From an uncultured Solirubrobacterales bacterium (GTDB lineage Bacteria; Actinomycetota; Thermoleophilia; Solirubrobacterales; 70-9): a stretch of 64,000 bases of DNA. Location: NCBI GenBank assembly GCA_963807385.1, contig CAWEBQ010000003.1, positions 718,426-782,425 of the forward strand, given 5' to 3'. Under the pieces are notes generated by a model. It made no database searches, was not told the DNA's origin, and saw only the letters and a list, made by a program, of their open reading frames with translations. The position numbers were made by a program, and so were the translations under genes. Of the stretch, positions 12,109-59,928 are shown piece by piece (the first letter of the stretch is position 1; every line of letters begins with the position of its first letter).

Positions 12109-13287
12109 CTACAGCGTGGTGGTCCCGGACGTCTCACTGGCAAGGCCAGCGGCCCGCTCGCCCTTCAGCTGGCGTGCGTTGTCGGCGATGAAGTCCTCGG
12201 TCTGCTGCCGCGCCTCGTCGTCCGGCCGCTGCGTGTGCGGGGACTTCATGAGGTACGAGGACGGGCCATCGAGCTGACCGGCGATGCCGTTGTTGAGCGC
12301 GAGCTTGATCAGCCGCACGGCGTCGATCACGACGCCCGCCGAGTTCGGCGAGTCCCAGACTTCGAGCTTCAGCTCGACCGTCAGCGGCACGTCGCCGAAG
12401 GACTTGCCCTCGAGGCGGATGTGCGCCCACTTGCGGTCGGTGAGCCATGGCACGTAGTCCGAGGGGCCGACGTGGACGTCGTCCTCGGGGAGCTCGGTGC
12501 CCATCACCGAGGTGACGGCGTTCGTCTTCGAGATCTTCTTCGAGTCCAGCCGCTCGCGCTCGAGCATGTTGAAGAAGTCCATGTTGCCGCCCACGTTGAG
12601 CTGTGAGGTGTGCTGCATCTCGACGCCGCGCTCGTGGAAGAGGCGGGCGAGTTGGCGATGGACGATTGTGGCTCCGACCTGCGACTTGATGTCGTCGCCG
12701 ATGATCGGCAGCCCGGCCTCCGTGAAGCGCTTGTCCCAATAGTCCTCGCGGGCGATGAAGACCGGCAGGCAGTTGACGAACCCGACGTCCGCCTTCAGAG
12801 CCTGCTCGACGTACCACTTGGTCGCGTCCTCCGAGCCCACCGGGAGGTAGCAGACGAGGACGTCGGCCTTGGTCTCCTTGAGGATGCCGACGATGTCGGC
12901 GGTCTCCCCCGGCGCCTTCGTGATCCTCTGCTTCAGATATTTGCCGAGGCCGTCGTGGGTCATCCCCCGATGGACCTCGACGCCCATCTCCGGAACGTCG
13001 GCGAACTTGATCGTGTTGTTCTGGCCCGACCAGATCGCCTCGGAGAGGTCCTTGCCCACCTTCTCGGAGTCGATGTCGAACGCGGCGACGAACTCGATGT
13101 CGCGGACGTGGTAGCCACCGAGGTCCACGTGCATGAGGCCCGGGACCTGCTCGGCGGGATCGGCGTCCTTGTAGTACTCGACGCCCTGGATAAAGCTGTT
13201 GGCGCAGTTGCCGACGCCGACGATGGCGACGCGGACCTTGCCGTCGTCGTGCCTGTGGCCGTTGCTGCTGGCCCCGTTTGTACTCAT
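12109..13287 (-). CDS. ino1: myo-Inositol-1-phosphate synthase
   Basis: 392 aa with [42 protein letters not shown] and [16 protein letters not shown], matching bacterial/archaeal MIPS blocks. GAGGAGG lies upstream of the start. Confidence 0.9.
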
Positions 13288-13374
13288 GCGAACGAAGTCC
13301 TCCTCGCGGCGGGTGGAGAGGTAACTATGCCTGACCCCCGGCGCAGTTACAGCGGTGTGGGGCCCAGGGTGAGG

Positions 13375-14019
13375 CTACTCGGCGCCCGTTGCCTCCTGGG
13401 CTTTGAGCTCGCCGCGCACGTGCCAGACGCGCTGGCCGACCGTGAAGGCAGTGAGCACGGCCATCGCGTAGACCGCGGGCTCGAGCAGCTCCACCCCGTC
13501 GATCAGTTCCTCCGCGCCGAAGACGAGCCCCGCCGAGAGGATCACCACGCGCACCGGCCGCGTCGCGATGCCGACCTTGCATTCCACGCCGAGGGCCTCG
13601 GCGCGGGCGCGTGTGTAGGACACCATCAGCGAGCCGAGCACGGCGACGACGCAAGCCGCTGCGGCCACCGAGTCGCCGTTCTCGGCGAAGTAGTAGGCGA
13701 CGGCTGCCAGGACGATGCCCTCCTCGATGCGGTCGAGCGTGGAGTCAAGGAAGGCGCCGAACAGCGTGCCCTTCCCCGACATCCGCGAGTAACGCCCGTC
13801 GAGGGTGTCCATAACCGAGCCGACGATGAACGCGATCCCGCCGAGGAGGAAGTGCTCTCCCACGATGAGGGCGGCGGCGGCGAGGTTCAGCACGAGCCCG
13901 GTCATCGAGATCGCGTTCGGCGTGAGGCGGGACTCGATCAGGCGGTTGCGCGCGTAGACGCGCAGGTCCTGGCCCGACCGGGGACGCGGCCCGGGGCTTG
14001 GTGCCTTGCCTTCCACCAC
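13375..14019 (-). CDS. CDP-alcohol phosphatidyltransferase, probably phosphatidylinositol-phosphate synthase
   Basis: Carries the signature D-x2-DG-x2-AR...G-x3-D-x3-D as DTLDGRYSRMSGKGTLFGAFLDSTLDRIEE. The track ORF extends to 14124. I prefer the GTG at 14019 (or 14016), just after the upstream gene's stop at 14027. The substrate is inferred from adjacency to ino1. Confidence 0.75.
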   Translation of the reverse strand: MVEGKAPSPGPRPRSGQDLRVYARNRLIESRLTPNAISMTGLVLNLAAAALIVGEHFLLGGIAFIVGSVMDTLDGRYSRMSGKGTLFGAFLDSTLDRIEEGIVLAAVAYYFAENGDSVAAAACVVAVLGSLMVSYTRARAEALGVECKVGIATRPVRVVILSAGLVFGAEELIDGVELLEPAVYAMAVLTAFTVGQRVWHVRGELKAQEATGAE

Positions 14020-14026
14020 GCGGACG

Positions 14027-14803
14027 CTACTGCGCGATGGCGGCGTCGTGGCCTCCACGCCACGACCAGTGGCTCGAGCGGAGGCGAGCCAGGCGGTGCG
14101 CGGCGATCGCCGCGGCGCACGCAACGGCTGCTCCGGCGGCCGCGTCGAACCAGAAGTGATTGGCGGTCACGACGATCACGAACAGGACCAGCAGGGGGTA
14201 CGCGGACCAGGCGGCGCGCGCCGCCGCGCCCTGAACGAGCGCCACCGCCGGCGCGGCGACCATCAACGAGAACGCGATGTGCATGCTTGGGACCGCCGCG
14301 TAGGGGTTGACGAGGAAGCTGGCGCTCGAGGAGTCCTGCTCGATCCCCGCGACGGTCGCGATCGTGTCGGTAAACCCCAGCTCTCCGAACATCCTGGGTG
14401 GCGCCGTGGGGAACGCCGCGTAGCCCACGAGGGCCAGGACCATCGCCACCATGAACATGTTGCGCACGAAGTAAAAGTGGTCGTTGCGGCAGAGGTAGAG
14501 CCACGTGAGGAACCCGGCCGTGACCACGAAGTGGGTATTGAAGTAGGCCCAGTTGGCGAGGTCGATCAACCACCTGTGATCGAGCACGGCCTGCTGGAAC
14601 CCGGGCTCGAAGAACGTCCCGAGGGACCGCTCGAGGTCCATGATGCGCTCGGCGTTGGCGAACGCGAGCCCGGAGCGCCCGTCCACGAACCCGCGCACGA
14701 GCTGATAGCCCTGGTAGACGCCCAGGAAGAGCACGACCTGCAGTGCCAGATCGCGCCAGCCGCGCGGAAGGCGCGCGGAGATTGAGGAAAGGCTCCTGCG
14801 CAA
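14027..14803 (-). CDS. PAP2_C / inositol-phosphorylceramide-synthase-like membrane protein (PAP2 superfamily)
   Basis: 258 aa and polytopic. Motifs are NPYAAVPSMHIAFSL and VTANHFWFDAAAG (the S-x-H ... H-x3-D arrangement of the PAP2_C / Aur1-like group). Confidence 0.65.
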   Translation of the reverse strand: MRRSLSSISARLPRGWRDLALQVVLFLGVYQGYQLVRGFVDGRSGLAFANAERIMDLERSLGTFFEPGFQQAVLDHRWLIDLANWAYFNTHFVVTAGFLTWLYLCRNDHFYFVRNMFMVAMVLALVGYAAFPTAPPRMFGELGFTDTIATVAGIEQDSSSASFLVNPYAAVPSMHIAFSLMVAAPAVALVQGAAARAAWSAYPLLVLFVIVVTANHFWFDAAAGAAVACAAAIAAHRLARLRSSHWSWRGGHDAAIAQ

Positions 14804-24402: not shown

Positions 24403-24423
24403 ACGGGTACATTTCCGCGCTTG

Positions 24424-25383
24424 ATGCGCGCCATCGTCACGGGGACGGCGGGATTCATCGGTTCGCGCCTGTCCCGGCGACTACTGGAAGCCGGGAGCGC
24501 GGTCGTCGGGATCGATCGGATCTCCGACTATTACGACCCGGCGCTGAAGCGCGAGCGACTCGACCGCCTGGGCCGCGCCGACGGCTTCGAGCTGATCGAG
24601 GGCGACCTCTGCGAGATCGACCTCCGAGCCGTGCTGTCGGACGCGGACGTCGTCTTTCACCTGGCGGCCCAGCCGGGCGCCCGCGGCGGCTGGGGTGAGG
24701 AGTTCGGGGTCTACCAGCGCGACAACGTGACCGCCACCCAGCGCCTGCTGGAGGCCGCCCGGGAGGGCGCGCTGCGCCGGTTCGTCTTCGCCTCCTCCTC
24801 ATCGGTGTACGGGGAGGCCGAGCGCTACCCGACCGACGAGGGCCTGGAGCCGCACCCCGCCTCTCCGTACGGGATCACGAAGCTGTCCGGCGAGCAGCTC
24901 TGCCACCTGTACGGCAGGTACGGCGTGCCGGCGGTGATCCTGCGCTACTTCACGGTCTACGGGCCGGGCCAGCGCCCGGACATGGCGTTCTCCCGGTTCA
25001 TCGCCGCCGTGCTCGCGGGGCGGCCAGTGGAGGTCTTCGGCGACGGGTTTCAGGAGCGCGAGTTCACCTACGTTGATGACGCCGTCAGGGCCACAGTCGC
25101 CGCCGGTCAGCGTGGGCGGCCGGGGGCCACCTACAACATCGGCGGCGGGTCGCGAGCGAGCGTCCTCGCCGCGATCGAGCTGATCGGCGAGCTGCTGGAG
25201 CGGGTGCCCGAGGTGCTCCACCTCCCGGTGGCCGCGGGTGACCTGCGCCGTACCGCCGCCGACGTCTCCCTCGCGAAGGCCGAGCTGGGCTTCGCGCCCA
25301 GGACATCCCTACGAGCGGGACTCTCCGCCCAGCTCGACGCCACTCCGAGCGCCCGCGAGCCCGTACCCGAGATCCTCGAGTAG
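24424..25383 (+). CDS. NAD-dependent sugar-nucleotide epimerase/dehydratase (SDR family)
   Basis: Contains MRAIVTGTAGFIGSRL (GxxGxxG), S..SVYG and YGITK (YxxxK). Its 3' end overlaps the convergent GT-ST fusion gene by about 75 nt. Confidence 0.85.
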   Translation: MRAIVTGTAGFIGSRLSRRLLEAGSAVVGIDRISDYYDPALKRERLDRLGRADGFELIEGDLCEIDLRAVLSDADVVFHLAAQPGARGGWGEEFGVYQRDNVTATQRLLEAAREGALRRFVFASSSSVYGEAERYPTDEGLEPHPASPYGITKLSGEQLCHLYGRYGVPAVILRYFTVYGPGQRPDMAFSRFIAAVLAGRPVEVFGDGFQEREFTYVDDAVRATVAAGQRGRPGATYNIGGGSRASVLAAIELIGELLERVPEVLHLPVAAGDLRRTAADVSLAKAELGFAPRTSLRAGLSAQLDATPSAREPVPEILE

Positions 25384-27111
25384 CTCCCCGGCGACGGCCT
25401 CGAATGTGCGCACGGCGCCGGCGTCCATCTCGGTCCGCCAGCGACCGATCCGGTCGGGACGCGGCGGCTCGGCCACGAGCGCATGCTGCTCCGCCCGCCG
25501 TTCGGCCACGGGGGCCATGCGCTCCGCGGCTCCCAGGTGATAGCCCAGCACCGCGTCGTCCCAGGGCAGGTCGAGGAACCGCGTGAGCCGGCGGAGGGCC
25601 GGGGCCGGATCGGTCACGAGCGCCTCGTAGCGAACCTCCGTGTAGGCGTGCGGGGGTAGGCGGGAGGCCTGCCGGCGGGCGCCCACGGTGCGCTGGCGCC
25701 ACAGGCGTGCCGCGCCCTCGACATCGTCCGGCCCCCAGCTCACGCCGGCCAGCGAGACGGCGACGTCCCGGCCATCCCGGATGACCTGGACGAAGCGCGC
25801 CTCCGGCACCACCGCGCTGATCATCCGCATCCGGCGCGAGTAGCCGGGGGTCTTATCACCCCACCGCGGCTTCCCGACGCGGCGGGCGTGAACGACGTGC
25901 ACGCAGCGAACGGCGTCGGCCAGACGCAGGGGCCGGATCGCGCTGAGGTGCGCGGCCAGCTCGCCGGGATCCAGTCCGAGGGCCGGCCATCGGCGATGGG
26001 AGACGATCAACTCGTGCGTCATTCGCCGAAGCTCGTCCTGGCTAGCCCCCTCGGAGTCGAGCTTTCGCCAGCGGCGCACCAGCATCGGGATGAAGTGGGT
26101 CTCGGCCGGGATCGCTAGCCGCGGATGAGCGTCCAGCATCAACCGCAGGAGCGTGGTGCCGGAGCGCGGGGTGCCGATGACGAACGGGACCGGCGGTGGC
26201 CGGGGATCCGCCCGCAGGCGGGCCGCCGATGCGCGGAGCCGACCCGGCGTCGCCTGCGCCCGGGCCAGCGCCGTGCGCGGGTCCACCCGGGGCGCGGGGG
26301 GGGCGGTCCAGGGGCCGAGCCGCCCCAGCCGGTCTCGAAAGCGGGTGTCCTCGACGACCAGGTCGTCGGGGGTGTCAACCACCTCCCGCGCGTAATAGTC
26401 CTCGAGCTCACCGCGGCGCCAGAGCCTGTACTCGCGCCGCCGGTTGCGGTTGAACCGCTCCTTCGGGGTGTTGGCGTGCTCGATCGTGCGCCCACGGATG
26501 ATCACGCCGTGCTCGAACTGGTCGTAGGTTCGCATCTGGAAATGGAGCACCTCGACGGAGCCCAGCCGGACCGTCCTGCCGGCCGCCGGCTGCGCCGGCC
26601 GGTGCACCCCCTCGATCCTCAGCCCCGGACGGGCCCGGTGGATCCACTTCGGCAGCAGGGGCAGGTGAAGCTTGTTGACGGCCGCCCGCTGACGAAGCGT
26701 CATCCGCTCCCACCACGGCCGGCCGTCCTCCGGAGTCGGCACGAAGTTCAAGCGCCGGCACACCACGCCCCCGATGCCGGGGTCGAGGGCGGCGACCGCC
26801 TCCTTCAAGGTGCCGCTCTCCGGGAACCAGAACTCGTCCGCGTCGTTGGGGAGCACCCAGTCCGCCCCCTCCTCGTCGATCGCGATTCGCGCCATCCGGG
26901 TCAGCCACCGCGCCTGGCGGTAGACGCCCGGTTCGTCGATCACCCGGACGAGCCCACGCGTCTCGTAGTCGCGCAGGATCTCCCGCGTGCCGTCCCGCGA
27001 CCCGTTGTCCATGACGACGGCGAAGTCCACTCCCTGGGAGAAGTGGTAGTCGAGGTTCTCCCGCACGACGTCGGCCTCATCGCGTACGAGCAGGGTCATC
27101 ACCAGGCGCAT
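25309..27111 (-). CDS. Bifunctional fusion: N-terminal GT2-like glycosyltransferase domain plus C-terminal TPST-like sulfotransferase domain
   Basis: 600 aa. The N-terminal roughly 300 aa read LLVRDEADVVRENLDYHFSQGVDFAVVMDNGSRDGTREIL...NDADEFWFP and are paralogous to 47806..48900. From about aa 305 (about nt 26199 downward) it reads PFVIGTPRSGTTLLRLMLDAHPRLAIPAETHFIP...KPRWGDKTPGY...VIRDGRDVAVS. Confidence 0.85.
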   Translation of the reverse strand: MRLVMTLLVRDEADVVRENLDYHFSQGVDFAVVMDNGSRDGTREILRDYETRGLVRVIDEPGVYRQARWLTRMARIAIDEEGADWVLPNDADEFWFPESGTLKEAVAALDPGIGGVVCRRLNFVPTPEDGRPWWERMTLRQRAAVNKLHLPLLPKWIHRARPGLRIEGVHRPAQPAAGRTVRLGSVEVLHFQMRTYDQFEHGVIIRGRTIEHANTPKERFNRNRRREYRLWRRGELEDYYAREVVDTPDDLVVEDTRFRDRLGRLGPWTAPPAPRVDPRTALARAQATPGRLRASAARLRADPRPPPVPFVIGTPRSGTTLLRLMLDAHPRLAIPAETHFIPMLVRRWRKLDSEGASQDELRRMTHELIVSHRRWPALGLDPGELAAHLSAIRPLRLADAVRCVHVVHARRVGKPRWGDKTPGYSRRMRMISAVVPEARFVQVIRDGRDVAVSLAGVSWGPDDVEGAARLWRQRTVGARRQASRLPPHAYTEVRYEALVTDPAPALRRLTRFLDLPWDDAVLGYHLGAAERMAPVAERRAEQHALVAEPPRPDRIGRWRTEMDAGAVRTFEAVAGELLEDLGYGLAGARSGVELGGESRS

Positions 27112-27142: not shown

Positions 27143-28942
27143 CTAGGGGTGCTCGATGCGGATCAGCTGATTGTCCGCCACGTCGTGGAGGGTCCGGATG
27201 GCGCCGTCGGTCCAGCGCACGGTCACACGGTCGACCGTCGTCGAGTCCCCAAGGCCGAAGTAGGTGCGCCAGTCGCCGGCCGAGTACCTCGAGCTGTCGC
27301 TCTGCCCGACCCAGGCCGTCTGCTCAGCACCGCCCGCCGCGATCCGCACCCGGGCGCCCGGGGCCTCGCGGGCACCGCTCCGGCCCCCGACGTCCACCTG
27401 CAGCCAGTGGTCGAGGGCGAGGTTGTTGCGGAACAGCGAGCTGAACCGCCCGGAGTCACCGCGGGCCGTTAGGGCCCCGTCGCGGTCGCCGTCTCCGTCC
27501 ACGTCCATCCACACCGCCCGGGCCGTCCTCAGGCTCCCGGTGGCGAGCATCCCGGTCGCGGTGAAGCCACCCTGCGGCCGCTGCTCGTAGATCCCCCCCG
27601 GGGGGGCGTAGAGGTCGAGCAGGCCGTCGTTTTGGTGGTCGATCCAGACGACTGGACCCTCCGCCTGCGCCGGCAGGCCCATCCCCGGGGGAGTGCGCGC
27701 CGCCAGGGCGCCGCGGCGGTTGGGAAGCAGGGTGAGCCCATCGCGCGCCGAGACGAGCACGTCGGCGTCGCCGTCGTTATCGAAGTCCGCCGACGCGACG
27801 CCCGCCACCTCCCCCCGGGGCAGGTGGGTCATGCGCTGTCTGCGCGCCCACCCGCCGTCCGCCCGACGCTCGAAGACGCGCAGGCCACCGCGGTCGAAGG
27901 TGATCAGCTCCGGCTTGAGGTCGCCGCGGAGGTCAACCCACTCGATCGCGGGGCCGCGCGCGCCCGCGCGCTTGAGCGGGCCTGACGCGTTCTCGAACCC
28001 CCGCCCGCGCCGAACGAACAGCCGAGTGGGCCCGTCGGTGCAAGACATCGACAGGTCGGTACGGGCGTCCCCGTCGGCGTCGATTGGCAGCGCAGCCCGA
28101 GCGCGGCAGCGGCCCTTGCGCAGCCCGCGCGCGGCCGCGAAGTCGTCGAAGACGCCGCGCGCCTGGAGCATCAGCTGGTCCTGAACCAGGTTGCCGTGGC
28201 CCTTGATGCGGCCGGCGAGCCCCCCGCGCGCGATCAGCGTGTCGCTGTCGCCGTCGGAATCCGCGTCCGCCCAGCCCATGCCGTGCCTGTCGCGGACCTG
28301 GATCGAGAACCTCGCCTTCGCCGCCTTTACCGCCTGCGAGCCGATGAAGGTCGGGTGGGCCGAGGTCTCGAGCACCTTGACCGGAAGCGCAAGCGGGACC
28401 ATCCGGACGTCAACGCGGCCGCCGGGCGGGATCGAGTAGTCCACGCGGGTGTTCGGGAGGTCGCCGCCGCCCTGGACGTCCACCCCCGCCCGCGCGCCGG
28501 ACTTGGCGATCGCCTTGACGATCCCGCGCGACTTGATCGAGCCCGAGGTGCTCACGCCGTGCGAGGCCAATCGCAGCCCGTTCGGCCGGTAGAAGACGTA
28601 AAGCCCCGGATCGCCGTGGGTCGGGGCGTTGTTGATCGCCTCGAGGCCGGGGAACGCCGGCTTGTGGTCGAGCCTCAGGTCCGAGAGCTGATTCGTAAAG
28701 CCGCCCCCGCCGTCGCCGATCAGCACCACCTGGCGGTTGTTGTGCGCGGTGGTGAAGAGATCCGGGCGGGCGTCGGCACCGACGTAGGCGACGCCCAGGT
28801 CGTAGACGCGTTGCGGGATCGGCAGATCGGTGGTCGTGAACGGGGCGAGGCGGGCCTCGGGCGAGGAGGCCCCGAACGCGAGCACGGCGACCAACACGGC
28901 GATCGCCGCGGTCTCCCTGCGATACCGCTTGCGTGCCCCCAT
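27143..28942 (-). CDS. Secreted FG-GAP/VCBS-repeat protein with a C-terminal ASPIC/UnbV domain (CRTAC1-like)
   Basis: 599 aa with an N-terminal signal-like segment AAIAVLVAVLAFGASS. Repeats include ADFDNDGDADVLV, WMDVDGDGDRD and ADADSDGDSD. The C-terminus reads GARVRIAAGG...GQSDSSRYSAGDWRTYFGLGDSTTVDRVTVRWTDG. It lies 31 nt upstream of the GT-ST fusion on the same strand. Confidence 0.8.
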   Translation of the reverse strand: MGARKRYRRETAAIAVLVAVLAFGASSPEARLAPFTTTDLPIPQRVYDLGVAYVGADARPDLFTTAHNNRQVVLIGDGGGGFTNQLSDLRLDHKPAFPGLEAINNAPTHGDPGLYVFYRPNGLRLASHGVSTSGSIKSRGIVKAIAKSGARAGVDVQGGGDLPNTRVDYSIPPGGRVDVRMVPLALPVKVLETSAHPTFIGSQAVKAAKARFSIQVRDRHGMGWADADSDGDSDTLIARGGLAGRIKGHGNLVQDQLMLQARGVFDDFAAARGLRKGRCRARAALPIDADGDARTDLSMSCTDGPTRLFVRRGRGFENASGPLKRAGARGPAIEWVDLRGDLKPELITFDRGGLRVFERRADGGWARRQRMTHLPRGEVAGVASADFDNDGDADVLVSARDGLTLLPNRRGALAARTPPGMGLPAQAEGPVVWIDHQNDGLLDLYAPPGGIYEQRPQGGFTATGMLATGSLRTARAVWMDVDGDGDRDGALTARGDSGRFSSLFRNNLALDHWLQVDVGGRSGAREAPGARVRIAAGGAEQTAWVGQSDSSRYSAGDWRTYFGLGDSTTVDRVTVRWTDGAIRTLHDVADNQLIRIEHP

Positions 28943-28995: not shown

Positions 28996-29388
28996 ATGGG
29001 CCCGATCACCAAAAGCGCGCTGGCCGGCTACGAGGACTTCAACGATCAGGACTTCGACTCCCTCCTCTCGCGGATGACGGAGGACTTCTCGTGGCACGAG
29101 GCTCCGGAGATTCCCGGGCCGAAGTCGGCGCGCACACGCGCCGAGTTCGCGAGATACCTCCGGGGCTTCGACCAGCTGTGGGACGAGTTCCGCTTCGAGG
29201 TCCTCGAGACCGCTGAGGCGGACGACATGCTCTACAGCAGAGTGGTGCTGCACGGCCGAGGCAGGGCAAGCGCAGACGCCCTCGAACTCGAGATCCACCA
29301 CGTCTGGCGCCTGCGCGATGGCCTCTTCGCGAGCATGCACGCTTACCTGGATCGCGACGAGGCGCGCGCGGCCGCGCGCGTCGACTAG
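28996..29388 (+). CDS. SnoaL/NTF2-like small protein
   Basis: 130 aa. The size and pattern (...FRFEVLETAEADDMLYSRVVLHGRGRASADALELEIHHVWRLRDGL...) are typical of the NTF2-like/SnoaL_2 fold. Same architecture as 56569..56985. Confidence 0.6.
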   Translation: MGPITKSALAGYEDFNDQDFDSLLSRMTEDFSWHEAPEIPGPKSARTRAEFARYLRGFDQLWDEFRFEVLETAEADDMLYSRVVLHGRGRASADALELEIHHVWRLRDGLFASMHAYLDRDEARAAARVD

Positions 29389-32300
29389 AGGCGCCGCTCG
29401 GTGTCGCGGATCACCCGCAGCGCCGCGTGCTGGCGCTCCGCCGAGACGACGTCTCCCTTGGCCTCGTAGAGCTGAATCGCCCTGGTGATCGGGGACACCG
29501 CCTCGGTAGGGGCGCGCGCTGCGCGCATGACGGCCCCGAGCGAGGCCAGCGCATCGGCGAGCAGAAGCGTTGTGTCGCTGGGCTCGGCCGCCGCGATCGC
29601 CTCGCGCGCCAGCCGCTCCGCCTCGGCCAGATCGCCGCTGGCCAGCAGGCTCTCGACCCGCGCGAGTCGCCACTTGACCTGGGCGTCGAGATCGTCGTGC
29701 GCGGCCATCCGCTCGGCCCGGCGGGTGAGCTCCAGCGCCTCCTCAATTCGGCCCTGGCGTACGATCGCTACGGCGAGCATCGGCGCCACCGTGGCGGCGA
29801 TGTGCTTGGCGCCGATCGAGTCGAAGTAGGCCAGCGCATCCCGAAGCTCGACCTCCGCCGCAACCGGATTGGAGCGGAGCGGCTCCACCGCCGCGGTCGA
29901 GATCGGCAGGTAGGCGTTGTGAGCGGGCTGGCCGAGCTCGTCGAAGATCCGGCGCGCGGAGTTGAACGCGTCCGCCGCCTCCTCCGCCCGGCCCGAGCGC
30001 GCAAGCATCTCGCCCATGCGCGTAAGCGTGGAACCCTCCAGCGAGCGGTTCCCGCGGGCACGCGCCCAGTCGAGGTCGTCCCGCGCCCGGGCGACGACGC
30101 GCTCGCATGGGGATGGGCCGAAGACGGCCACCTGCAGCAGCCAATAGCGAATCCAGGCCTCGACGCCCTGGTCTCCGGCGTCGCGGGCGAACTCCAGCGC
30201 GTGCTCGAAGGCCTCCTGCGCGGCCGCCTGTTCGCCGCGATCGGAGTGGGCCTTGCCCAGCAGGTGCCATGCCTTGGCCGCGCCGAGATCGTCGCCGAGG
30301 CCCTGGAAGACGCCCGTCAGCTCCGCGGCGCCGGAGCGCCCGTTCTCCGCCCACCAGGTCGGCTCCGTGAGTCGGCGCAGGCTGAGTTCGAGGATCCGCA
30401 CCTCCGCGTCGGTCCGGGGATCGACTCCTCGCGCCGCTCGCCTTCGCAGCTCCGCCAGGGCGTCGGCGGCCGCGGACGTCTCGCCCCCTCGGACGAGCGC
30501 CGTCCCGAGGGACAGCAGCGGCTCCAGGCGCGACGAATCCTCCTCCGAGGCGAGGGCGACGACCCTTGCGTAGAACTGCGCGGCGGTGACGTCGTCCTGG
30601 CGGGCGCTCGCGCGGTTTCCGGCCGCCATCAGATGCTCGGCTGCCTTGGCCGTCACCCTCTGGGCGTCGGCGGCTCCGGCCAGGAGCTCGCGGTGATACC
30701 CGGCGGCGGCCTCGAAGTGGTAGCCGACGATCTCCTCGGCCTCACCACGCCGATCGTTGGTCCACTCAAGCATCCAGTCGCCGACCTGCTCGTGCAGCTG
30801 AGCACGTCGGGCCTTCGGGATCGCCTCGTAGACGGCGTCCCGAAGCAGCAGGTGCCGAAACCGGAGCATGTCCGGCGCCGTGCCCCTGCGGCGGACCGTC
30901 TCGACCACGAGCTTGCGAGCGAGCCCTGCCAGGGGCTCGGTCATGTCCTCGTCGGTCATCCGCTGGACGGCGCTCGCCCAGAACTCCATGCCGACCACCG
31001 CCGCCAGCTCGGCGCAGGCGCGCTCGCGATCGTCAAGATGGTCCACGCGCGAGGCGAGGATCGTCTCGATCGAGGGGGGTACGTCAAACTCCGCCAGGTC
31101 GTCGGCCGCGGTCCACCCGGACTCCGATCTGGTCAGGCGACCGTCGTCGATCAGCATGCGGAGCACCTGCTCGACGAACAGCGGGTTGCCCGCTGCGAGC
31201 TCGACGATCCGGGCGCGGGTCGTGTCCGGTAGGGCCGCGCCCGCGAGCTCCTCCACCAGCGCCTCGATATCGGCATCGGGCAGTGGGCCCAGGGGGATCG
31301 TCGTCGGGCCGGGCTCCGCCCATCCCGATCGGCGCGCGAGTAGCTCGAAGCGCGCAGTGCACGCGATCAGCACGGCGGCGTCCAGCTGGCCCGGGAGGCG
31401 CTCGATCAGGTCCAGGAGCGGATCCTCGGCCCACTGGAGATCCTCCAAAACCACCACGACGGGGCCGTGCGCCGCCCGCGAGCTGAGCAGCGTCCGCAGG
31501 GCCCACAGGATCTGCTCGGGGGCCTTGGAGGCCGGCTCGACGCCGATCAGCTGGGCGAGCTCGGACGCGGCGACGTCGGCCCGCTCGGAGCCGTCGAGCG
31601 CCGCGGCGATCTTCGCTCGCGCCGAGCGGGAGTCGTCGTCCTCGGTGATTCCCGCCGCCTGTCTCACGATCTCGGCCACCGCCCACCAGGTGATGCCCTC
31701 CCCGTAGGAGAGGCAGCGCCCCGCCAGCACCAGGGCTCTGCCGTGGTAGCGATCGACCACCTCCGCGAGCAGACGGGTCTTGCCGACGCCGGCGTCGCCC
31801 AGAAGGATCAGGAACTCCGGCGATCCGCGCGCCACGCACCGCTCGAACGCAACGGTCAGCAGCGAGAGCTCCCGGCTCCGGCCCACCAGCGGCTGATCCG
31901 CCAGCGGCACCGCCGCTTCCCGCGCCGCCGGGCCAAGCACTTGGTACGCCCTGATCGGCTCGGTGCGGCCCCGGAGGTCGAGGTCGCCCGCGAACTCCGC
32001 GTCCATCTCGCGGCGAACGAGGACATACGTCTCCTCGCCGATCACGAGGCCTCCCGGCGGCGCCCAGGATTGAAGGCGGGCCGCTACGTTCATCGTGTCC
32101 CCCAGGCTGACCCTCCGTCCCGCGACCTGACGGCCGACGACGACGGTGCCGGTGTTCACGCCCACGCGCATCTCAAGCCGCGTGCCCAGGCGGGGCTCGA
32201 CCTCGGCGTTCAGGGCCTGGAGCTCCTCGAACATCGCGATCCCGGAACGTACCGCGCGCAGCGCCTCGTCGGGCTGGGCCACCTCGGTGCCGAACACCCC

Positions 32301-32504
32301 CATCACGCCGTCGCCCGCGAGGTGCTCGATCAAGCCACCATGACGCTCGACCACGCCCGCCATGCGCTCGAGGAACGCCAGCATCAGCTCGCGGAAGGTC
32401 TCAGGATCGAACCGCTCGGCCAGCGGGGTCGAGCCGACGACGTCGGCGAACACGGCCGTTACCTGCTTGCGAAAGCCCTCCGGGCCCCCACGGTTCCCGT
32501 CCAC
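29385..32504 (-). CDS. Class III adenylate/guanylate cyclase fused to a STAND AAA+ ATPase and TPR-like repeats, with no recognisable HTH
   Basis: 1039 aa. Cyclase blocks are VTAVFADVVGSTPL, AGDGVMGVFG, VGVNTGTVVVG and GDTMNVAARLQS. Walker A is LGDAGVGKTRL, followed by a long helical-repeat C-terminus. Confidence 0.85.
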   Translation of the reverse strand: MDGNRGGPEGFRKQVTAVFADVVGSTPLAERFDPETFRELMLAFLERMAGVVERHGGLIEHLAGDGVMGVFGTEVAQPDEALRAVRSGIAMFEELQALNAEVEPRLGTRLEMRVGVNTGTVVVGRQVAGRRVSLGDTMNVAARLQSWAPPGGLVIGEETYVLVRREMDAEFAGDLDLRGRTEPIRAYQVLGPAAREAAVPLADQPLVGRSRELSLLTVAFERCVARGSPEFLILLGDAGVGKTRLLAEVVDRYHGRALVLAGRCLSYGEGITWWAVAEIVRQAAGITEDDDSRSARAKIAAALDGSERADVAASELAQLIGVEPASKAPEQILWALRTLLSSRAAHGPVVVVLEDLQWAEDPLLDLIERLPGQLDAAVLIACTARFELLARRSGWAEPGPTTIPLGPLPDADIEALVEELAGAALPDTTRARIVELAAGNPLFVEQVLRMLIDDGRLTRSESGWTAADDLAEFDVPPSIETILASRVDHLDDRERACAELAAVVGMEFWASAVQRMTDEDMTEPLAGLARKLVVETVRRRGTAPDMLRFRHLLLRDAVYEAIPKARRAQLHEQVGDWMLEWTNDRRGEAEEIVGYHFEAAAGYHRELLAGAADAQRVTAKAAEHLMAAGNRASARQDDVTAAQFYARVVALASEEDSSRLEPLLSLGTALVRGGETSAAADALAELRRRAARGVDPRTDAEVRILELSLRRLTEPTWWAENGRSGAAELTGVFQGLGDDLGAAKAWHLLGKAHSDRGEQAAAQEAFEHALEFARDAGDQGVEAWIRYWLLQVAVFGPSPCERVVARARDDLDWARARGNRSLEGSTLTRMGEMLARSGRAEEAADAFNSARRIFDELGQPAHNAYLPISTAAVEPLRSNPVAAEVELRDALAYFDSIGAKHIAATVAPMLAVAIVRQGRIEEALELTRRAERMAAHDDLDAQVKWRLARVESLLASGDLAEAERLAREAIAAAEPSDTTLLLADALASLGAVMRAARAPTEAVSPITRAIQLYEAKGDVVSAERQHAALRVIRDTERRL

Positions 32505-32569: not shown

Positions 32570-33655
32570 ATGCGGATCGGAATCTGTGCCTACTGGTTCA
32601 ACCGTGGTCAGGGCGTCGTCGCACGCCAGATCCGAACCGTGCTCGACGGGCTCGGGCACGAGACCTTCGTCCTTGCCCGGCCGACGCGCGAGTCCAACAT
32701 CCGCTCGGCTTTCGTCGATCGCAGCGACGTCTGGGATCAGCCCGGCATCACGGAGGCCTCCGCGTACGAGATCCCGGTGCAGGAGTACCTCGACTGGGGA
32801 GCGGAGCGACAGCTCGACATCGCGTTCTTCGACCAGAACTACGGATTCGAAGGGATCGCCGCTCTGCGAGGGACCGGTGTCAGGACGGTCGGGCGCTTCG
32901 TCTGGGAGCAGTTCTCGGAGTCTCACGTCCCCGAGGCGAAGGAGGCCCTGGACGTCCTGTACTCGCTCACGCGCTGCGAGCAGGAACGCTACGCCGGCTT
33001 CGGGATCGAGAGCCCGTACGTGCAATGGGGCGTCCATCCCGATCTGCTCGCCTACGACCACGGCGAGCGGCCCCCGGGCGAGGTCGTGAACTTTCTCTAC
33101 CCCGCCGGGTTTCTCTCGCGGCGCAAGCCGCTGCGCCAGATCCTGCGGGCGTTCCGGACGGTCGAAGGCGCTGACCTCCGGCTCACGGTGAAGGCGCAGG
33201 TCGAACGCCAGCAGCGGCGGCTGACGGAGGCCGCCGAGTCGGATCCGCGGATCTCGTTCAGCTTCGAGGACCTCCCCACCGACGAGCACCTGCGCCGGTT
33301 CGCCGCGGCCGACGTCTGCCTCGCCCCGAGCCGCTGGGAGGGTTTGGGCCTGCACCTATACGAGGCGACGGCGTTCGGGATGCCCGTCATCACCAACGAC
33401 GACCCGCCGATGAACGAGGTCATCAAGGACGGTGTCAACGGCCTCCTCGTCAAGAGCAGGCGCAAGGGCGAGGCGAAGTCGGGAATCCCGTCGGTGGACC
33501 CGAGCGTCCGCAGCATGCGAAAGGCGATAGATCGCATCCGAGACCCGGGCCTGCGCACCGAGTTGCGGGCCGGAGCTCTCGCCGAGCGCGAGCGCCTCGA
33601 CTGGCGCCACACCGTCGAGGGCTACGCACGTCTGGTCGAGTTGGCCACCGCTTAG
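32570..33655 (+). CDS. GT4-family (GT-B) glycosyltransferase, paralog A
   Basis: 361 aa with the C-terminal E-x7-E-type block PSRWEGLGLHLYEATAFGMPVITNDDPPMNEVIKDGVNGLLV. It is collinear along its full length with 54469..55566. Confidence 0.85.
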   Translation: MRIGICAYWFNRGQGVVARQIRTVLDGLGHETFVLARPTRESNIRSAFVDRSDVWDQPGITEASAYEIPVQEYLDWGAERQLDIAFFDQNYGFEGIAALRGTGVRTVGRFVWEQFSESHVPEAKEALDVLYSLTRCEQERYAGFGIESPYVQWGVHPDLLAYDHGERPPGEVVNFLYPAGFLSRRKPLRQILRAFRTVEGADLRLTVKAQVERQQRRLTEAAESDPRISFSFEDLPTDEHLRRFAAADVCLAPSRWEGLGLHLYEATAFGMPVITNDDPPMNEVIKDGVNGLLVKSRRKGEAKSGIPSVDPSVRSMRKAIDRIRDPGLRTELRAGALAERERLDWRHTVEGYARLVELATA

Positions 33656-38572: not shown

Positions 38573-38875
38573 TCAGCGGGTCCGTGCGAAGCGCTCGACC
38601 GCCCCGAGCAGCTCCGCGACGCGCTCCTGCGCCTCCGGCCCGCCCTGCTCAACCGCGTCGCGTACGCAGTGGTTGGTGTGATCGGTGAGGACCTCGAAGC
38701 CCACCCGGTCGAGCGCCTTGGTGACGGCCGCAAGCTGGGTCAGGACATCGATGCAGTAGGCCTCGTCCGAGACCATCCGCCCTAGTCCGCGGACCTGGCC
38801 CTCGATGCGAGCAAGGCGGCGGAGGATCGCATCGCGGTTCTCGATGTAGCCGACGTCGGAAGTGGCAGCCTCCAC
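38573..38875 (-). CDS. csoR: CsoR-family copper-sensing repressor (DUF156)
   Basis: The GTG at 38875 gives a 100-aa protein VEAATSDVGYIENRDAILRRLARIEGQVRGLGRMV..AYCIDVLTQL...DHTNHC. The Cys / His(+25) / Cys(+29) spacing equals the C-H-C copper ligands of CsoR. The rest of track ORF 38573..39151 is a shadow. Confidence 0.8.
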   Translation of the reverse strand: MEAATSDVGYIENRDAILRRLARIEGQVRGLGRMVSDEAYCIDVLTQLAAVTKALDRVGFEVLTDHTNHCVRDAVEQGGPEAQERVAELLGAVERFARTR

Positions 38876-38885
38876 CCCCCGCACT

Positions 38886-38902
38886 ATACCGGGTGGGGGT
38901 AT
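38886..38902. promoter_or_regulatory. CsoR-operator-like palindrome overlapping a -10 element
   Basis: ATACC-GGGTGGG-GGTAT lies in the 55-nt divergent gap. On the minus strand, TATAGT (reverse complement of 38883-38888) ends 7 nt before the csoR GTG, so the transcript may be leaderless. Confidence 0.5.
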
Positions 38903-38930
38903 TGACCCTGCCACAATTCGCGGCCGTCTC

Positions 38931-39836
38931 ATGAGGATTCCCCTCTTCAGCCGCCGGCATGTACCAGACCCCGCCCCGTTCGTCGTCGGCGTCGGCCGCT
39001 CCGGCACGACGCTGCTGCGCCTGATGCTGGACGCGCATCCCCGGCTTGCGATGCCCCCGGAGACGGGCTTTATCCCCGGGCTCATCGCGGCCGCCAAGGA
39101 GCCGGGCGCCACCCCCGAGAGCGCCCTGGCCGCCGTCACGGGCCACCGCAAGTGGGGGGACTTCCCGATGTCTGAGGACGAGCTGCTCGAGCGCTGGCGG
39201 GGGCTCGATCGCGTGCGCCCGAGGGGCGTCGTCCGGGCCTTCTACGAACTCTACGCCGAGCATCAGGGTAAGCCGCGCTGGGGCGACAAGACCCCCGGCT
39301 ACACGATGTACATGGGGCGGATCTCGCGAACGCTGCCCGAGGCCCGCTTCGTGCACGTCATCCGCGACGGCCGCGCCGTCGCCCTTTCGCGGATGCGAAC
39401 GCTCGCGCTGCGGCCCGTCGAGATCAGCAAGGTGGCGAACCGCTGGCAGAAGCGGGTCCGCAAGGCGCGCGCGAAGGGAGCCGAGCTCGATCACTACCTG
39501 GAGATCCGGTACGAGTCGCTCGTTCGCGAGCCCGAGTCCACGCTGAGGCACGTTTGCGAGTTCATCGAGCTCGACTGGGATCCGGCGCTGCTCGATTACC
39601 ACCGCCGCTCCGAGGAGCGCCTGGCCGAGCTCGACCGCGATATCCCCGCCTGGGGGAAGAAGCTACCCCGCTCGGCGGAGAGCCGCATGGCCCTGCACCA
39701 GCAGACGACCAAGCCGCCGGACACCGCGCGCATCGATCGCTGGCGCGACGAGCTCTCGGCGGAGGACGTGGAGGCCTTCGAGTCGGTGGCGGGCGACCTG
39801 CTGAGCGAGCTGGGCTACGAGCCCGCCTCGGCGTGA
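38931..39836 (+). CDS. TPST-like PAPS-dependent sulfotransferase
   Basis: The ATG at 38931 gives MRIPLFSRRHVPDPAPFVVGVGRSGTTLLRLMLDAHPRLAMPPETGFIP...KPRWGDKTPGY...VIRDGRAVALS...LEIRYESLV...AGDLLSELGYEP. Confidence 0.88.
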   Translation: MRIPLFSRRHVPDPAPFVVGVGRSGTTLLRLMLDAHPRLAMPPETGFIPGLIAAAKEPGATPESALAAVTGHRKWGDFPMSEDELLERWRGLDRVRPRGVVRAFYELYAEHQGKPRWGDKTPGYTMYMGRISRTLPEARFVHVIRDGRAVALSRMRTLALRPVEISKVANRWQKRVRKARAKGAELDHYLEIRYESLVREPESTLRHVCEFIELDWDPALLDYHRRSEERLAELDRDIPAWGKKLPRSAESRMALHQQTTKPPDTARIDRWRDELSAEDVEAFESVAGDLLSELGYEPASA

Positions 39837-40699
39837 GCGATCCACGGCCCGTCCTGGTCGTCGGGCTGCAGAAGTCGGGGACGAGCCTGCTGCTGCGCCT
39901 GCTGTCTGAGACCAGCGCGTTCCGCAACCCGGTCCGCTTCGAGGGGCGCGAGCTGTGGGGAGACGACCCGCCGTTCGCACCAACCGCCTTTCCGGCGGGG
40001 ACGTTCTACCAGCGCGAGGGCGGCGAGAACGGGCACGAGCTGGGCGTCGCCGAGGCCACCGACGAGGTGCGCGAGCACCTTGAGCGGGCGCTGGCGGGCG
40101 CCGCGAGGCCGGGCAAGTCCCTGGTCCTGAAGAACCCGTACAACACCGTCCGCGTCCCATGGCTGCGCGCCCTGCTGCCGGACGCCGTGATCGTCGGCGT
40201 CGTGCGCCGAGCCTTGCCGAACACCTTCTCCCTGGTCAAGAAGCACGTCGAGAACCCTCACGTCCACCGCGGCCCGGAGGAGGGCTGGTGGGGGGTAAAG
40301 CCGGCCGGCTGGCGCGGGATCGTCTCCGAGGACAAGGTCGTGCAGGCGGCGCACCAGTGGGCGGGCGTAAACGGCAAGCTCTGGACGGACAGGGCGACCC
40401 TCGACCTGCTGGTCCCCTATCAGGATCTGTGCGCGGATCCTGCGGGGTTCGTGGGCCGGATCGGCGAGCTGGCCACGGACCGGGCGGTGACCGGGGAGTT
40501 CCCCGCCCTCGAAGCGCTCGACGACGAGTTCGAGCGCGGGGGCCCCTTGGAGTCTGCGAACCGCGTCTTCAAGCGCACCGGGTCGCTCGACCTCGAAGGA
40601 GCCGAGCGGGACCCGGCGCACCTCGAGCCGTACACGGAGGCCCAGCGCGCAAGGGTGCTCGCGATCTGCGAGCCGGTCGCGGCCCAGTTCGGGCTCTAA
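39833..40699 (+). CDS. Divergent sulfotransferase-family protein
   Basis: The GTG at 39833 overlaps the preceding stop (GTGA). It has a P-loop-like 5'-PSB motif VVGLQKSGTSLLLRLL and a later block LVLKNPYNTVRVPWLRALLPDAVIVGVVRRALPNTFS. The first part of track ORF 39554.. is a shadow. Confidence 0.7.
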   Translation: MSDPRPVLVVGLQKSGTSLLLRLLSETSAFRNPVRFEGRELWGDDPPFAPTAFPAGTFYQREGGENGHELGVAEATDEVREHLERALAGAARPGKSLVLKNPYNTVRVPWLRALLPDAVIVGVVRRALPNTFSLVKKHVENPHVHRGPEEGWWGVKPAGWRGIVSEDKVVQAAHQWAGVNGKLWTDRATLDLLVPYQDLCADPAGFVGRIGELATDRAVTGEFPALEALDDEFERGGPLESANRVFKRTGSLDLEGAERDPAHLEPYTEAQRARVLAICEPVAAQFGL

Positions 40700-42489: not shown

Positions 42490-43421
42490 CAGGAGGAGCG
42501 CTCCGCGCGGCGCGCCTGGACATCGGCGAATGATTCATCTCGACTCGGCTTGAGCGGCAGGCGCGCCGCGAGCCAACGGCGGCGCTCGGAGTCCGCAAGC
42601 GGCGGCAGCAGCTCGTCCAGGAACCCTTCGACGTGGGCCCAGCGGTGCAGGTGCACGTGGACGAGGTCGTCGAGCTCGAGCGCCGATGCCGCGCCGGGCA
42701 GGCGGGCGCGCTGCGGCAGCGGGTAGTTGTAGGGCTCGGACAGCTCCCAGACCTCCTCGTGGCGGTCGGCGATCGTCGCCGCCCAGCTCATCTGGTCCAT
42801 CAGCTCAGGCTTGGCGTGGATGCACCCGGCGCCGACGAGGCGCTCGTGCGCCGCCTCCCAGGCGGAGAAGAGGCCAGCCGCACGCCGCGCCGCCAGCAGG
42901 CCGGCGTTCCAGTACGCGCGCACCCGAACGCCATCGACGGCGGTGAAGACGAAGGGCTCCGAGCTGACCCCCGCCGTCGCGTATAGCCGCTGCCACCACT
43001 CCTCGGCCTCGCCGTCATCCGGGCCGCGCGAGGCGGCGCGTGCGACGCCGACGGGCTTGGCCGCAGCGATCCAACTCCCCGTCGCCAGGTCCGACGGCTC
43101 GTTGACGAAGGCGCAGTCGCTGTCGGTGAAAACGAGGGTGGTGAAGTCCAGCTCTCGCTCGGCCCAGGCGGCCGCGTAGACCTTGTTCCATGTTGGGTGA
43201 TCGAGGTGGCGTTCGTTCAGGGGCTCGTCGATCAGCTCCACGCCGAGCCGGCCGAGCGCGGCTCTGGTCTCGGCGCCCGGGCCCAGGCCCGGTCGCGGCG
43301 CGAACGCGTAGACGGGCGCCTCGGCGTGAGCCCCCCCGAACTCCCGCAGCGACGAGACGCACAGGAGGGACTGCGCCTCCAGGGGGCCGCGCTCGACGCA
43401 GAGAAGGAAGGCCATCGACAT
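42489..43421 (-). CDS. Putative GT-A-like nucleotide-sugar transferase of an unassigned family (DxD motif)
   Basis: 310 aa: MAFLLCVERGPLEAQSLLCVSSLREFGG...LVFTDSDCAF...YWNAGLLAAR. It is collinear with the C-terminal half of 49829..51709. Confidence 0.6.
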   Translation of the reverse strand: MSMAFLLCVERGPLEAQSLLCVSSLREFGGAHAEAPVYAFAPRPGLGPGAETRAALGRLGVELIDEPLNERHLDHPTWNKVYAAAWAERELDFTTLVFTDSDCAFVNEPSDLATGSWIAAAKPVGVARAASRGPDDGEAEEWWQRLYATAGVSSEPFVFTAVDGVRVRAYWNAGLLAARRAAGLFSAWEAAHERLVGAGCIHAKPELMDQMSWAATIADRHEEVWELSEPYNYPLPQRARLPGAASALELDDLVHVHLHRWAHVEGFLDELLPPLADSERRRWLAARLPLKPSRDESFADVQARRAERSS

Positions 43422-59860: not shown

Positions 59861-59928
59861 TAGAACCCCCCGGTAGGCGGACCCCCTCATGGGGTGTGTC
59901 AACCTATACCACCGAAGAAGGGCCAAGC

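Follow-up and report, generated by a model that had tools for sequence, protein, structure and literature searches.

Fused and separate glycosyltransferase and sulfotransferase genes in a purine-gene locus of Solirubrobacterales

What does it mean when glycosyltransferase (GT) and sulfotransferase (ST) domains occur in one stretch of DNA both as fused proteins and as separate genes? We addressed this question for 64,000 nucleotides of Solirubrobacterales DNA (Actinomycetota, class Thermoleophilia; G+C content, ~71%), the whole of which is here called the window, and in particular for the fusion gene at 25309..27111 on the minus strand. This gene encodes a GT domain followed by an ST domain in a single protein of 600 amino acids (aa) and is here called GT2f~ST, the tilde marking domains fused in one protein. 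The gene map was made from a crowded list of open reading frames (ORFs), spurious frames included, that was filtered by third-position G+C content (GC3) and then annotated with Pfam. Taken together, the results make it probable that this is a pur-embedded, order-conserved locus whose products assemble, in the cytoplasm, a glycan or glycoconjugate rich in sulfate, with genuine bifunctional fusions that act on a shared acceptor.

Two fused proteins and the DxD family

GT2f~ST is encoded by one ORF. Its GT-A domain, of the GT2_4/GT92-like type, occupies approximately aa 1-265 (26317..27111, minus strand) and is followed by a variable, basic linker of ~40 residues rich in Ala, Pro, and Arg (aa 266-305) and then by a TPST/NodH-like domain of the type that uses 3'-phosphoadenosine 5'-phosphosulfate (PAPS; aa 306-600, 25312..26196, minus strand). 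The GT half matched Glyco_tranf_2_4 (PF13704) over aa 10-99 with 50.0 bits (cutoff, 27.5), with Glycos_transf_2 and GT92 matches extending to aa 205, and the ST half matched Sulfotransfer_3 (PF13469) over aa 310-519 with 129.6 bits (E value, 2.7e-37; cutoff, 27). An earlier reading made from the sequence alone (the sequence-only reading) had described this gene as a GT2-like domain followed by a TPST-like ST in one 600-aa protein, and the Pfam matches confirmed this; the label "TPST-like" was accurate, as the closest solved structures are those of TPSTs.

The second fusion, ST_c~DxD_a, has the domains in the order ST then GT. Encoded at 49829..51709 on the plus strand (626 aa), it consists of an ST domain (aa 1-290; Sulfotransfer_3 match in the N-terminal half, 129.9 bits) joined directly, end to start, over a junction of 6 to 8 residues (RPSNTP) to a 330-aa GT-A domain, here called DxD, that begins at aa 297 (50717..51706, plus strand) and had no Pfam match. 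The only other copy found in the window by tblastn was the stand-alone, 310-aa DxD_b at 42489..43421 on the minus strand, which is 41% identical to DxD_a over 297 aa (E value, 1e-55). Both the domain order of this fusion and the location of the second copy had been read correctly beforehand, and the E values behind these assignments are far from any expected by chance.

Both fusions would be uninformative if they were frameshift or assembly artefacts, and the source of the window is a metagenome-assembled genome (MAG). Some long-read assemblies of relatives visibly contain frameshifts, as in locus L085, where ST and sulfatase genes are broken into fragments. The evidence from the fusions themselves was of the opposite kind. 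The reading frame was unbroken, with GC3 values of 0.87-0.95 in the coding frame across both fusion junctions (0.88-0.93 across the GT2f~ST linker). An independent Logan assembly contained an identical 600-aa GT2f~ST protein, and about 10 fused homologues of it stemmed from different samples and sources. For ST_c~DxD_a, a full-length orthologue (P0362) that is 86% identical occupied the syntenic position in locus L086, and a 632-aa counterpart was present in a JGI contig, both in other samples. Given the continuous frame and GC3 and the conservation in several assemblies, we rejected an artefactual origin for both fusions; it is effectively refuted and retains almost no probability, and the fusions were rightly taken at face value in the sequence-only reading. 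By these comparisons, GT2f~ST and ST~DxD are genuine fused proteins that have been kept over a long divergence.

Nine protein clusters had the GT2~ST architecture, at 97-98% query cover and 39-72% identity (including P0002-P0008 and P0097), and a genome scan returned 80 loci, the closest of which (L002) was 79% identical. The fusion has been kept in a clade diverged to about 52-54% identity in which both sets of catalytic motifs are intact. This long retention with intact motifs shows, at the level of sequence, that the composite protein is functional. In the GT half, DNGSxDGT and DADEFW (D35, S38, D40, and D90-A-D92-E93) were invariant across both GT2 subfamilies, that of the fused half (GT2f) and that of the stand-alone gene described below (GT2s), and by motif conservation both halves of the fusion look active. 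One fused homologue, P0007, has PYSGTT in the 5'-phosphosulfate-binding (5'-PSB) loop of its ST. The linker was poorly conserved, differing among homologues in both length and sequence. In the AlphaFold2 (AF2) model of the full-length protein (pLDDT, 90.9; pTM, 0.83) the linker is helical, and the pTM value and the helical linker together hint at a fixed arrangement of the two domains. Foldseek matched the ST half to TPST1/2 and the GT half to SunS/ThuS, GalS1 (GT92), SpsA, TarS, and WrtF, with GalS1 and SpsA fitting about as well as SunS.

The DxD domain had been proposed to be a genuine glycosyltransferase, and its predicted structure supports this. By sequence, no assignment was obtained: there was no Pfam match at an E value of ≤0.01, none in NCBIfam, and none when a family profile was compared to the PDB sequences. 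When 121 members were searched against Pfam at an E value of ≤1, none of the matches was significant, the best E value being 0.06 and Nucleotid_trans reaching 0.11 in two members, and the family does not belong by sequence to CAZy GT8 or Pfam Glyco_transf_8. The AF2 model (pLDDT, 96.7; pTM, 0.94) gave 349 PDB matches in Foldseek at an E value of ≤0.001, and all of the best 50 were GT-A enzymes. Its neighbors were the GT6 ABO transferases, GT8 glycogenin, XXYLT1, and LARGE1, the GT24 UGGT catalytic domain, and WbbM (E values of ~5e-8; probability, 1.00; TM-scores, 0.46-0.56), to which its identity in structural alignments was 9-16%. Invariant across the 121 sequences were D100 and D102 (the DxD itself), N172, G174, Q210, and H257; we take the DxD, N-x-G, D-Q, and C-terminal His to be reminiscent of GT8 signatures at the level of motifs. 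From the model, we are confident that the family has the GT-A fold, the nucleotide-sugar fold expected of it, and is closest to the retaining GT6/GT8/GT24 enzymes; as modeled, it is GT8-like by fold and not by sequence, and Pfam has no model for this glycosyltransferase family. Of its 252 homologues, the best 120 were all stand-alone proteins of ~305 aa with no Pfam domains. In a classical polysaccharide cluster, the gene of one member has a Bac_transf priming transferase gene on one side and a Wzy_C gene on the other.

Split counterparts and the partners of the sulfotransferase clade

In the sequence-only reading, the domains of GT2f~ST were said to recur, split, in two overlapping genes at 47806..49832. 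The genes are there, in the order GT then ST. The first (GT2s; 47806..48900, plus strand) encodes a stand-alone GT2_4/GT92-like glycosyltransferase of 364 aa (PF13704; 64.6 bits against the cutoff of 27.5) with a C-terminal extension that looks coiled-coil-like by eye, and the second (ST_b; 48897..49832, plus strand) encodes a canonical sulfotransferase (Sulfotransfer_3; 123.4 bits) with ATGA overlaps with both GT2s upstream and ST_c~DxD_a downstream. Pairwise alignment showed that the claim holds for the families but not for orthology, with 35% identity between the fused GT half and GT2s and 44% between the fused ST and ST_b; the closest relative of the fused ST within the window was instead ST_f (55563..56537, plus strand), at 48%. 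With such identities, and with the two halves falling in different clades, the pair was rejected as the fission counterpart of GT2f~ST. Judged by alignment and phylogeny, GT2s and ST_b are distant paralogues of its halves, of the same families. Among the best 120 relatives of GT2s, 119 were stand-alone proteins (~365 aa) and 1 was a GT2~GT2 tandem.

Closer split relatives were found elsewhere. About 20 Solirubrobacterales genomes carried a stand-alone GT2f (~275 aa; 50-56% identity to the fused GT half) inside the pur cluster, and in loci L004-L021 a stand-alone ST was located one or two genes past it on the same strand, its best match in the window being either the fused ST or ST_f. In neighbor-joining (NJ) trees built from Kimura distances, the fused ST domains formed one clade (100% bootstrap) whose sister was the group of stand-alone pur-locus STs (98.5%), and the fused GT halves formed a clade with the unfused member of locus L003 (96%). 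On the phylogeny of the ST half, the real split counterpart of GT2f~ST is in other Solirubrobacterales genomes and not in the window. A composite protein with separate related parts elsewhere, the Rosetta-stone pattern, was found for both GT2f~ST and DxD, for the latter with the stand-alone P0365 (57% identity) and with adjacent ST1-DxD pairs, and the Rosetta-stone logic applied to this locus from the start is upheld by the sister relationship of the STs. Fusion of GT2 to ST appears to have occurred independently at least four times, as judged from unbootstrapped NJ trees: in P0097, which is 39% identical and falls outside the GT2f~ST clade, in the P0379 group, in P0393 (GT2s~ST), and in P0432 (ST~GT2s).

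The ST clade fuses repeatedly, also with itself, and is an unusually promiscuous partner. The best 120 matches to GT2f~ST included 110 ST~ST tandems and 1 GT4~ST~ST protein; such score-ranked lists over-represent multi-ST proteins and are not frequencies. When the best 150 representatives at 50% identity were classified, 83 were single STs, 14 were single DxD proteins, and 53 were multidomain proteins. The identified partners of the clade were GT2, GT92-like, GT4, GT9, and GT-D-like domains, WbsX, RgpF, NKWYS, and the Wzt ATPase with Wzt_C. Among individual proteins, the 1298 aa of P0361 comprise four ST domains, the 1808-aa P0406 contains GT4, WbsX, RgpF, and NKWYS in addition to ST, and in P0470 an ST is joined to a Wzt ABC-transporter ATPase that includes Wzt_C.

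These partners bear on the nature of the acceptor, which could alternatively be a protein or peptide, with TPST-like tyrosine O-sulfation combined with SunS-like glycosylation and an FG-GAP/ASPIC protein as a possible target. The closest solved relatives of the STs are indeed TPST1/2, SunS/ThuS are among the best matches of the GT half, an FG-GAP/ASPIC gene recurs beside GT and ST genes, and no polysaccharide export genes are present within the window. However, every identified catalytic partner of the ST clade (among them GT4, GT9, WbsX, RgpF, NKWYS, and Wzt/Wzt_C) belongs to polysaccharide biosynthesis or export, and this is the strongest argument available for sulfation of glycans rather than tyrosine. 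The carbohydrate sulfotransferase NodH also shares the Pfam family PF13469 (PMC11625862). The weak NoeE match of the ST and the sulfatase genes beside the ST arrays of relatives, both described below, likewise speak for a glycan. As noted above, SunS has no clear edge over GalS1 and SpsA as a structural match for the GT half. To our knowledge, the known tyrosine-sulfation systems (RaxST) do not look like a set of 11 STs, 6 GTs, and an epimerase. The evidence from the partners favors the view that the TPST-like STs of this clade sulfate glycans, and we consider a protein acceptor unlikely.

Gene content of the locus and the proposed pathway

The first part of the window contains dnaK-grpE-dnaJ-hspR-clpB, an epimerase gene (24421..25383), the opposite-strand fusion gene, and an FG-GAP/ASPIC gene. 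These are followed by a cyclase-AAA-TPR regulator, a GT4 gene, purD-purE-purB, a P450 gene, two ST genes, and the minus-strand pair of U597 and DxD_b, and then by purC, DUF5701, a divergent ST, (purS), purQ, and an unbroken plus-strand array of ST1, GT2s, ST_b, ST_c~DxD, ST_h, ST_d, ST_e, GT4_b, and ST_f. Thus, between 34075 and 47683 the GT and ST genes are interleaved with purD-purE-purB, purC, and purS-purQ, an arrangement that was kept in >20 Solirubrobacterales genomes (L002, L004-L022, L086, L098, L100); in relatives, the array is followed by purL. The purQ stop codon abuts the ST1 start codon (TAGATG), and from GT2s (47806) to ST_f all seven consecutive plus-strand junctions are ATGA, GTGA, or TGATG overlaps of 1 to 4 bp, by which the genes of the array are translationally coupled.

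By tblastn over the whole window there were 2 DxD, 2 GT2_4, 2 GT4, and 8 canonical ST copies, to which Pfam added 3 divergent STs. The total was 11 ST domains and 6 GT domains, the latter being two GT2_4/GT92-like, two DxD (GT8-like GT-A), and two GT4. The GT4 genes are GT4_a (32570..33655, plus strand; Pfam Glycos_transf_1), which is 55% identical to GT4_b (54469..55566, plus strand; Pfam), and the latter has GTGA overlaps on both sides. In addition to the STs already described, the canonical STs, all on the plus strand and identified with Pfam, are ST_g (38862..39836; 146.7 bits, motifs), ST_h (51706..52605; 135 bits, GTGA overlap), ST_d (52602..53549; motifs), ST_e (53549..54472; motifs), and ST_f, whose assignment also rests on the tree. 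The divergent STs, likewise on the plus strand, are located at 39848..40699 (Sulfotransfer_3, 50.7 bits, and alignment; the start is approximate, the ORF opening at 39554), at 45022..45957 between purC/DUF5701 and purS-purQ (Pfam, 41.6 bits; position kept in L082, L086, L087, and L098), and at 46880..47683 (ST1, Sulfotransfer_1-like by Pfam), the first gene after purQ. The STs at 51706..52605 and ~39848..40699, both found with Pfam, had been missed in the sequence-only reading.

The canonical STs other than the fused ST and ST_c scored 114-147 bits with the PF13469 model. The motifs PRSGTT, ETHF, RWGDKTP, and IRDGRDVA were complete in seven of the eight canonical STs and align to the TPST catalytic regions (5'-PSB loop, 3'-phosphate-binding [3'-PB] motif, and catalytic base). 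The exception, ST_e, has Gly where the others have Arg in the 5'-PSB loop (PGSGTT). This Arg is catalytic in TPST, so ST_e may be an impaired or differently working paralogue. The closest solved relatives of the STs were TPSTs (E values of 5e-20 to 1e-16; 22-27% identity), followed by the CurM/OLS ST domains. The sole NCBIfam match of the ST was to the nodulation-protein model NoeE, a weak match below the cutoff, and Stf0 (PF09037) gave a subthreshold match (0.0027) on one ST. No polyketide synthase or acyltransferase was found in the window, which does not contain a mycobacterial sulfolipid-type locus (Stf0/MmpL8) despite its MMPL gene. Sulfatase genes (PF00884) end the ST arrays in relatives (L085, 15487..18531; L086, 20107..21669; and the JGI contig), and none is present in the window.

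It had been proposed that every transfer of a sugar has a sulfation step of its own, in strict one-to-one modules, and this claim fails. It would agree with the two GT/ST fusions and the one overlapping GT-ST pair in the window and with 9 of 80 metagenome DxD loci in which a same-strand ST gene immediately precedes DxD. In the remainder of those 80 loci, however, 15 had an ST within 5 kb, 12 were adequately flanked and had none, and 44 were too short to judge, so that 12 of the 36 informative loci lacked any ST within 5 kb, and in none of the 80 was DxD fused to ST. In the window, DxD_b is coupled to U597 and not to an ST. The close relatives of GT2s are stand-alone. The 11:6 ratio of ST to GT domains, the run of three consecutive STs with no GT between them (51706..54472), and the ST~ST proteins, which are common and include one with four STs, contradict one-to-one pairing. 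We regard the strict model as improbable, and several sulfates per residue or position-specific STs are more likely.

In the reading that we prefer, of a sulfated glycan or glycoconjugate assembled on a shared acceptor, the fusions would mark enzymes that act on one growing acceptor. The GT half would add a sugar, the donor for which plausibly comes from the adjacent conserved epimerase, and the ST half, with PAPS as donor, would sulfate that sugar or one next to it. No membrane segments were predicted in the GT or ST proteins by a hydrophobicity scan, so the reactions probably take place in the cytoplasm, the site of PAPS synthesis. That the acceptor is a glycan and that the reactions run in this order are parts of the scheme that we infer, as is any kinetic gain from fusion. 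The fusions themselves probably arose when adjacent coupled cistrons with stop/start overlaps of 1 to 4 bp lost a stop codon; with such tight overlaps a single indel would join neighbors, so that fusions would be frequent and in either order.

The same mechanism allows a more modest interpretation, in which the fusions are near-neutral by-products of tight operons, function just as split proteins would, and signal membership of the same operon but not physical coupling or channeling. Overlapping stops and starts all along the array, the simple 6- to 8-residue join of ST~DxD, the variable length and sequence of the GT2f~ST linker, the occurrence of fusions in both orders and with many partners, ST itself included, and the clade member in L003 that lacks an ST are all as expected of it. 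Its weakness is that GT2f~ST has been kept to 52-54% identity in a monophyletic clade, that GT2~ST fusions seem to have arisen at least four times independently in the unbootstrapped NJ trees, and that the modeled helical linker and pTM value of 0.83 suggest a defined domain arrangement. We consider this interpretation possible but clearly less probable than fusions that work on a shared acceptor.

Several findings weigh against a pathway of the preferred kind and its fusions. The survey of fused versus split architectures that the sequence-only reading had called for was run and found both forms, with stand-alone proteins dominating in both GT families, which implies that fusion is not required for function. 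The fused GT halves grouped with the pur-locus GT2f in 43% of NJ bootstrap replicates. The nearest solved structures are TPST for the ST and, among those of GT2f, the peptide S-glycosyltransferases SunS/ThuS. Pfam annotation of the window revealed no gene for a priming transferase, a flippase, a polymerase, or an ABC exporter, and no PAPS-synthesis gene was found there either, so the pathway is incomplete as seen. Finally, all of the sequences compared came from MAGs and metagenomes, the labels of the homologues being nearly all Solirubrobacterales or "uncultured Actinomycetes" MAGs.

Among the neighboring genes, the one at 24421..25383 on the plus strand encodes an NAD-dependent sugar-nucleotide epimerase/dehydratase (Pfam Epimerase, 201 bits; RmlB/GalE-type NCBIfam matches all below cutoff). 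It is convergent with GT2f~ST, and the two genes share 75 bp at the 3' end of the latter, the convergent overlap also being seen with GT2f~ST in L001 and L002 and the pairing being the same in L003, and this epimerase is a conserved partner of GT2f. In L001 (7145..12810), the fusion and epimerase occur without other GT or ST genes within 10 kb, with DUF5701 close by as in the window (44382..45011), and from this locus the two may form a self-sufficient two-gene module. On the other side of the fusion, 27143..28942 on the minus strand encodes an FG-GAP/ASPIC-UnbV repeat protein (Pfam) with an N-terminal hydrophobic segment (hydrophobicity scan). Homologues of it adjoin GT2f~ST in L002 and ST1-DxD pairs in L090, L101, L102, L105, L111, L121, L130, and L135, and in some loci such genes are on both sides of the pair. 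This protein could be a secreted partner or substrate. U597 (40696..42489, minus strand; 597 aa) has no family match and is translationally coupled to DxD_b by a TGATG overlap. It carries the motif DLSGGRDSR, resembling the PP-loop (SGGxDS) ATP-pyrophosphatase motif; it had no NCBIfam or PDB sequence match, and Pfam up to an E value of 10 gave a chance-level match only. The DxD-U597 pair was kept in L082, in L087-L089, and in the 136-kb JGI contig, U597 being the partner of close DxD_b orthologues.

Other genes are placed farther from the fusions. A gene for an MMPL-family transporter (712 aa, ~12 hydrophobic segments) is located beside one for a right-handed beta-helix protein at 58619..62067 (minus strand), 3 kb downstream of the last ST, and the transporter is a possible exporter. 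A STAND-type regulator with adenylate/guanylate cyclase, AAA_16, and TPR domains (29385..32504, minus strand) adjoins GT4_a and was kept in L002, and a second large STAND-type regulator, with AAA_16, TPR, and a LuxR helix-turn-helix domain, is encoded at 7614..10475 (minus strand). At 12109..14124 (minus strand), genes for a myo-inositol-1-phosphate synthase and a CDP-alcohol phosphatidyltransferase form the usual inositol-phospholipid pair, which is apparently unrelated.

Comparison with known systems

Bacterial sulfated polysaccharides have been stated to be known essentially from cyanobacteria (PMC8205485; 2026 Actinoplanes study, PMC13390465), and this cyanobacteria-centered picture would be broadened by a conserved locus with 11 ST domains in an order of soil actinobacteria that is widespread. 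The locus would also offer chemists a target, namely, sulfate esters of carbohydrates in cultures of Solirubrobacter or Conexibacter. The census of fusion partners (GT2, GT4, GT9, WbsX, RgpF, and Wzt) assigns a class of substrate to a large branch of PF13469 that had no annotation, and the GT~ST fusions, if active, would be ready bifunctional catalysts for sulfated oligosaccharides, a bottleneck in heparin and glycosaminoglycan (GAG) biomanufacture. A bolder extension, which we offer tentatively as a possibility, is that Solirubrobacterales, which are abundant in soil, use the purine-operon locus to make a densely sulfated, GAG-like glycan on a modular cytoplasmic assembly line of GT~ST, ST~GT, ST~ST, and four-ST proteins, a bacterial route outside the cyanobacteria. 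If this were true, DxD would be a new GT-A family, and the fusions would be natural bifunctional glycosyl/sulfotransferases.

The known system most similar in composition is the synechan (xss) cluster of Synechocystis PCC 6803, which likewise contains several cytoplasmic GTs and PAPS-dependent STs in one bacterial cluster (PMC8205485). Sulfation of synechan was proposed to be cytoplasmic, before export, and its authors used PF13469 among other ST families to search cyanobacterial genomes (PMC8205485). The synechan cluster is under a STAND regulator (PMC8205485), and a STAND-type regulator is also nearby in the window, a likeness in regulator type only. Unlike the window, the xss cluster has 2 STs and 8 GTs, all as separate genes, together with Wzx/Wzy/PCP; the window has 11 STs, 6 GT domains, two GT/ST fusions, no export or polymerization genes in view, interleaved pur genes, and an actinobacterial host. 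A Wzx/Wzy- or ABC-dependent cluster of the synechan type was not recognized in the window, and relatives elsewhere include ST~Wzt and DxD beside Bac_transf/Wzy_C.

Among sulfotransferases, the rhizobial NodH and NoeE resemble those of the window in being cytoplasmic and PAPS dependent and in sulfating a sugar of a glycoconjugate, with NodH in PF13469 (PMC11625862). They differ in that they are single-domain enzymes that act on lipo-chitooligosaccharides, are not fused to GTs, and do not form multiparalogue arrays. TPST1/2 (PDB 3AP1, 5WRI, and 8W5Z) are, among solved structures, the closest in both sequence and fold and share the PRSGTT loop, catalytic Glu, Lys, and RDGR 3'-PB motif. Unlike the window STs, they are Golgi membrane proteins that sulfate peptide tyrosine, and where TPST has Ser285, the STs of the window have Gly (IGRW versus LSKW). 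The DxD model superposes on retaining GT-A enzymes of the GT8/GT6/GT24 type (glycogenin, XXYLT1, the LARGE1 xylosyltransferase domain, ABO GTA/GTB, UGGT, and WbbM), to which no sequence similarity is detectable.

With respect to architecture, the deacetylase-sulfotransferase NDST (PMC10864358), K4CP, and PmHS2 also carry out two consecutive steps of sulfated or acidic glycan synthesis in one polypeptide, but none of them joins a GT to an ST. Besides NDST, the nearest fusion in the literature joins an ST to a hydrolase and comes from a brown alga (PMC6418280); our literature searches found no paper on bacterial GT-ST fusions and none on sulfotransferases of Solirubrobacterales. Taken together, these comparisons lead us to judge that the enzyme classes and the pathway logic of the locus are already known and that what is new is the GT~ST, ST~GT, and STxN architectures, the scale of 11 STs, the host, and the embedding among pur genes.

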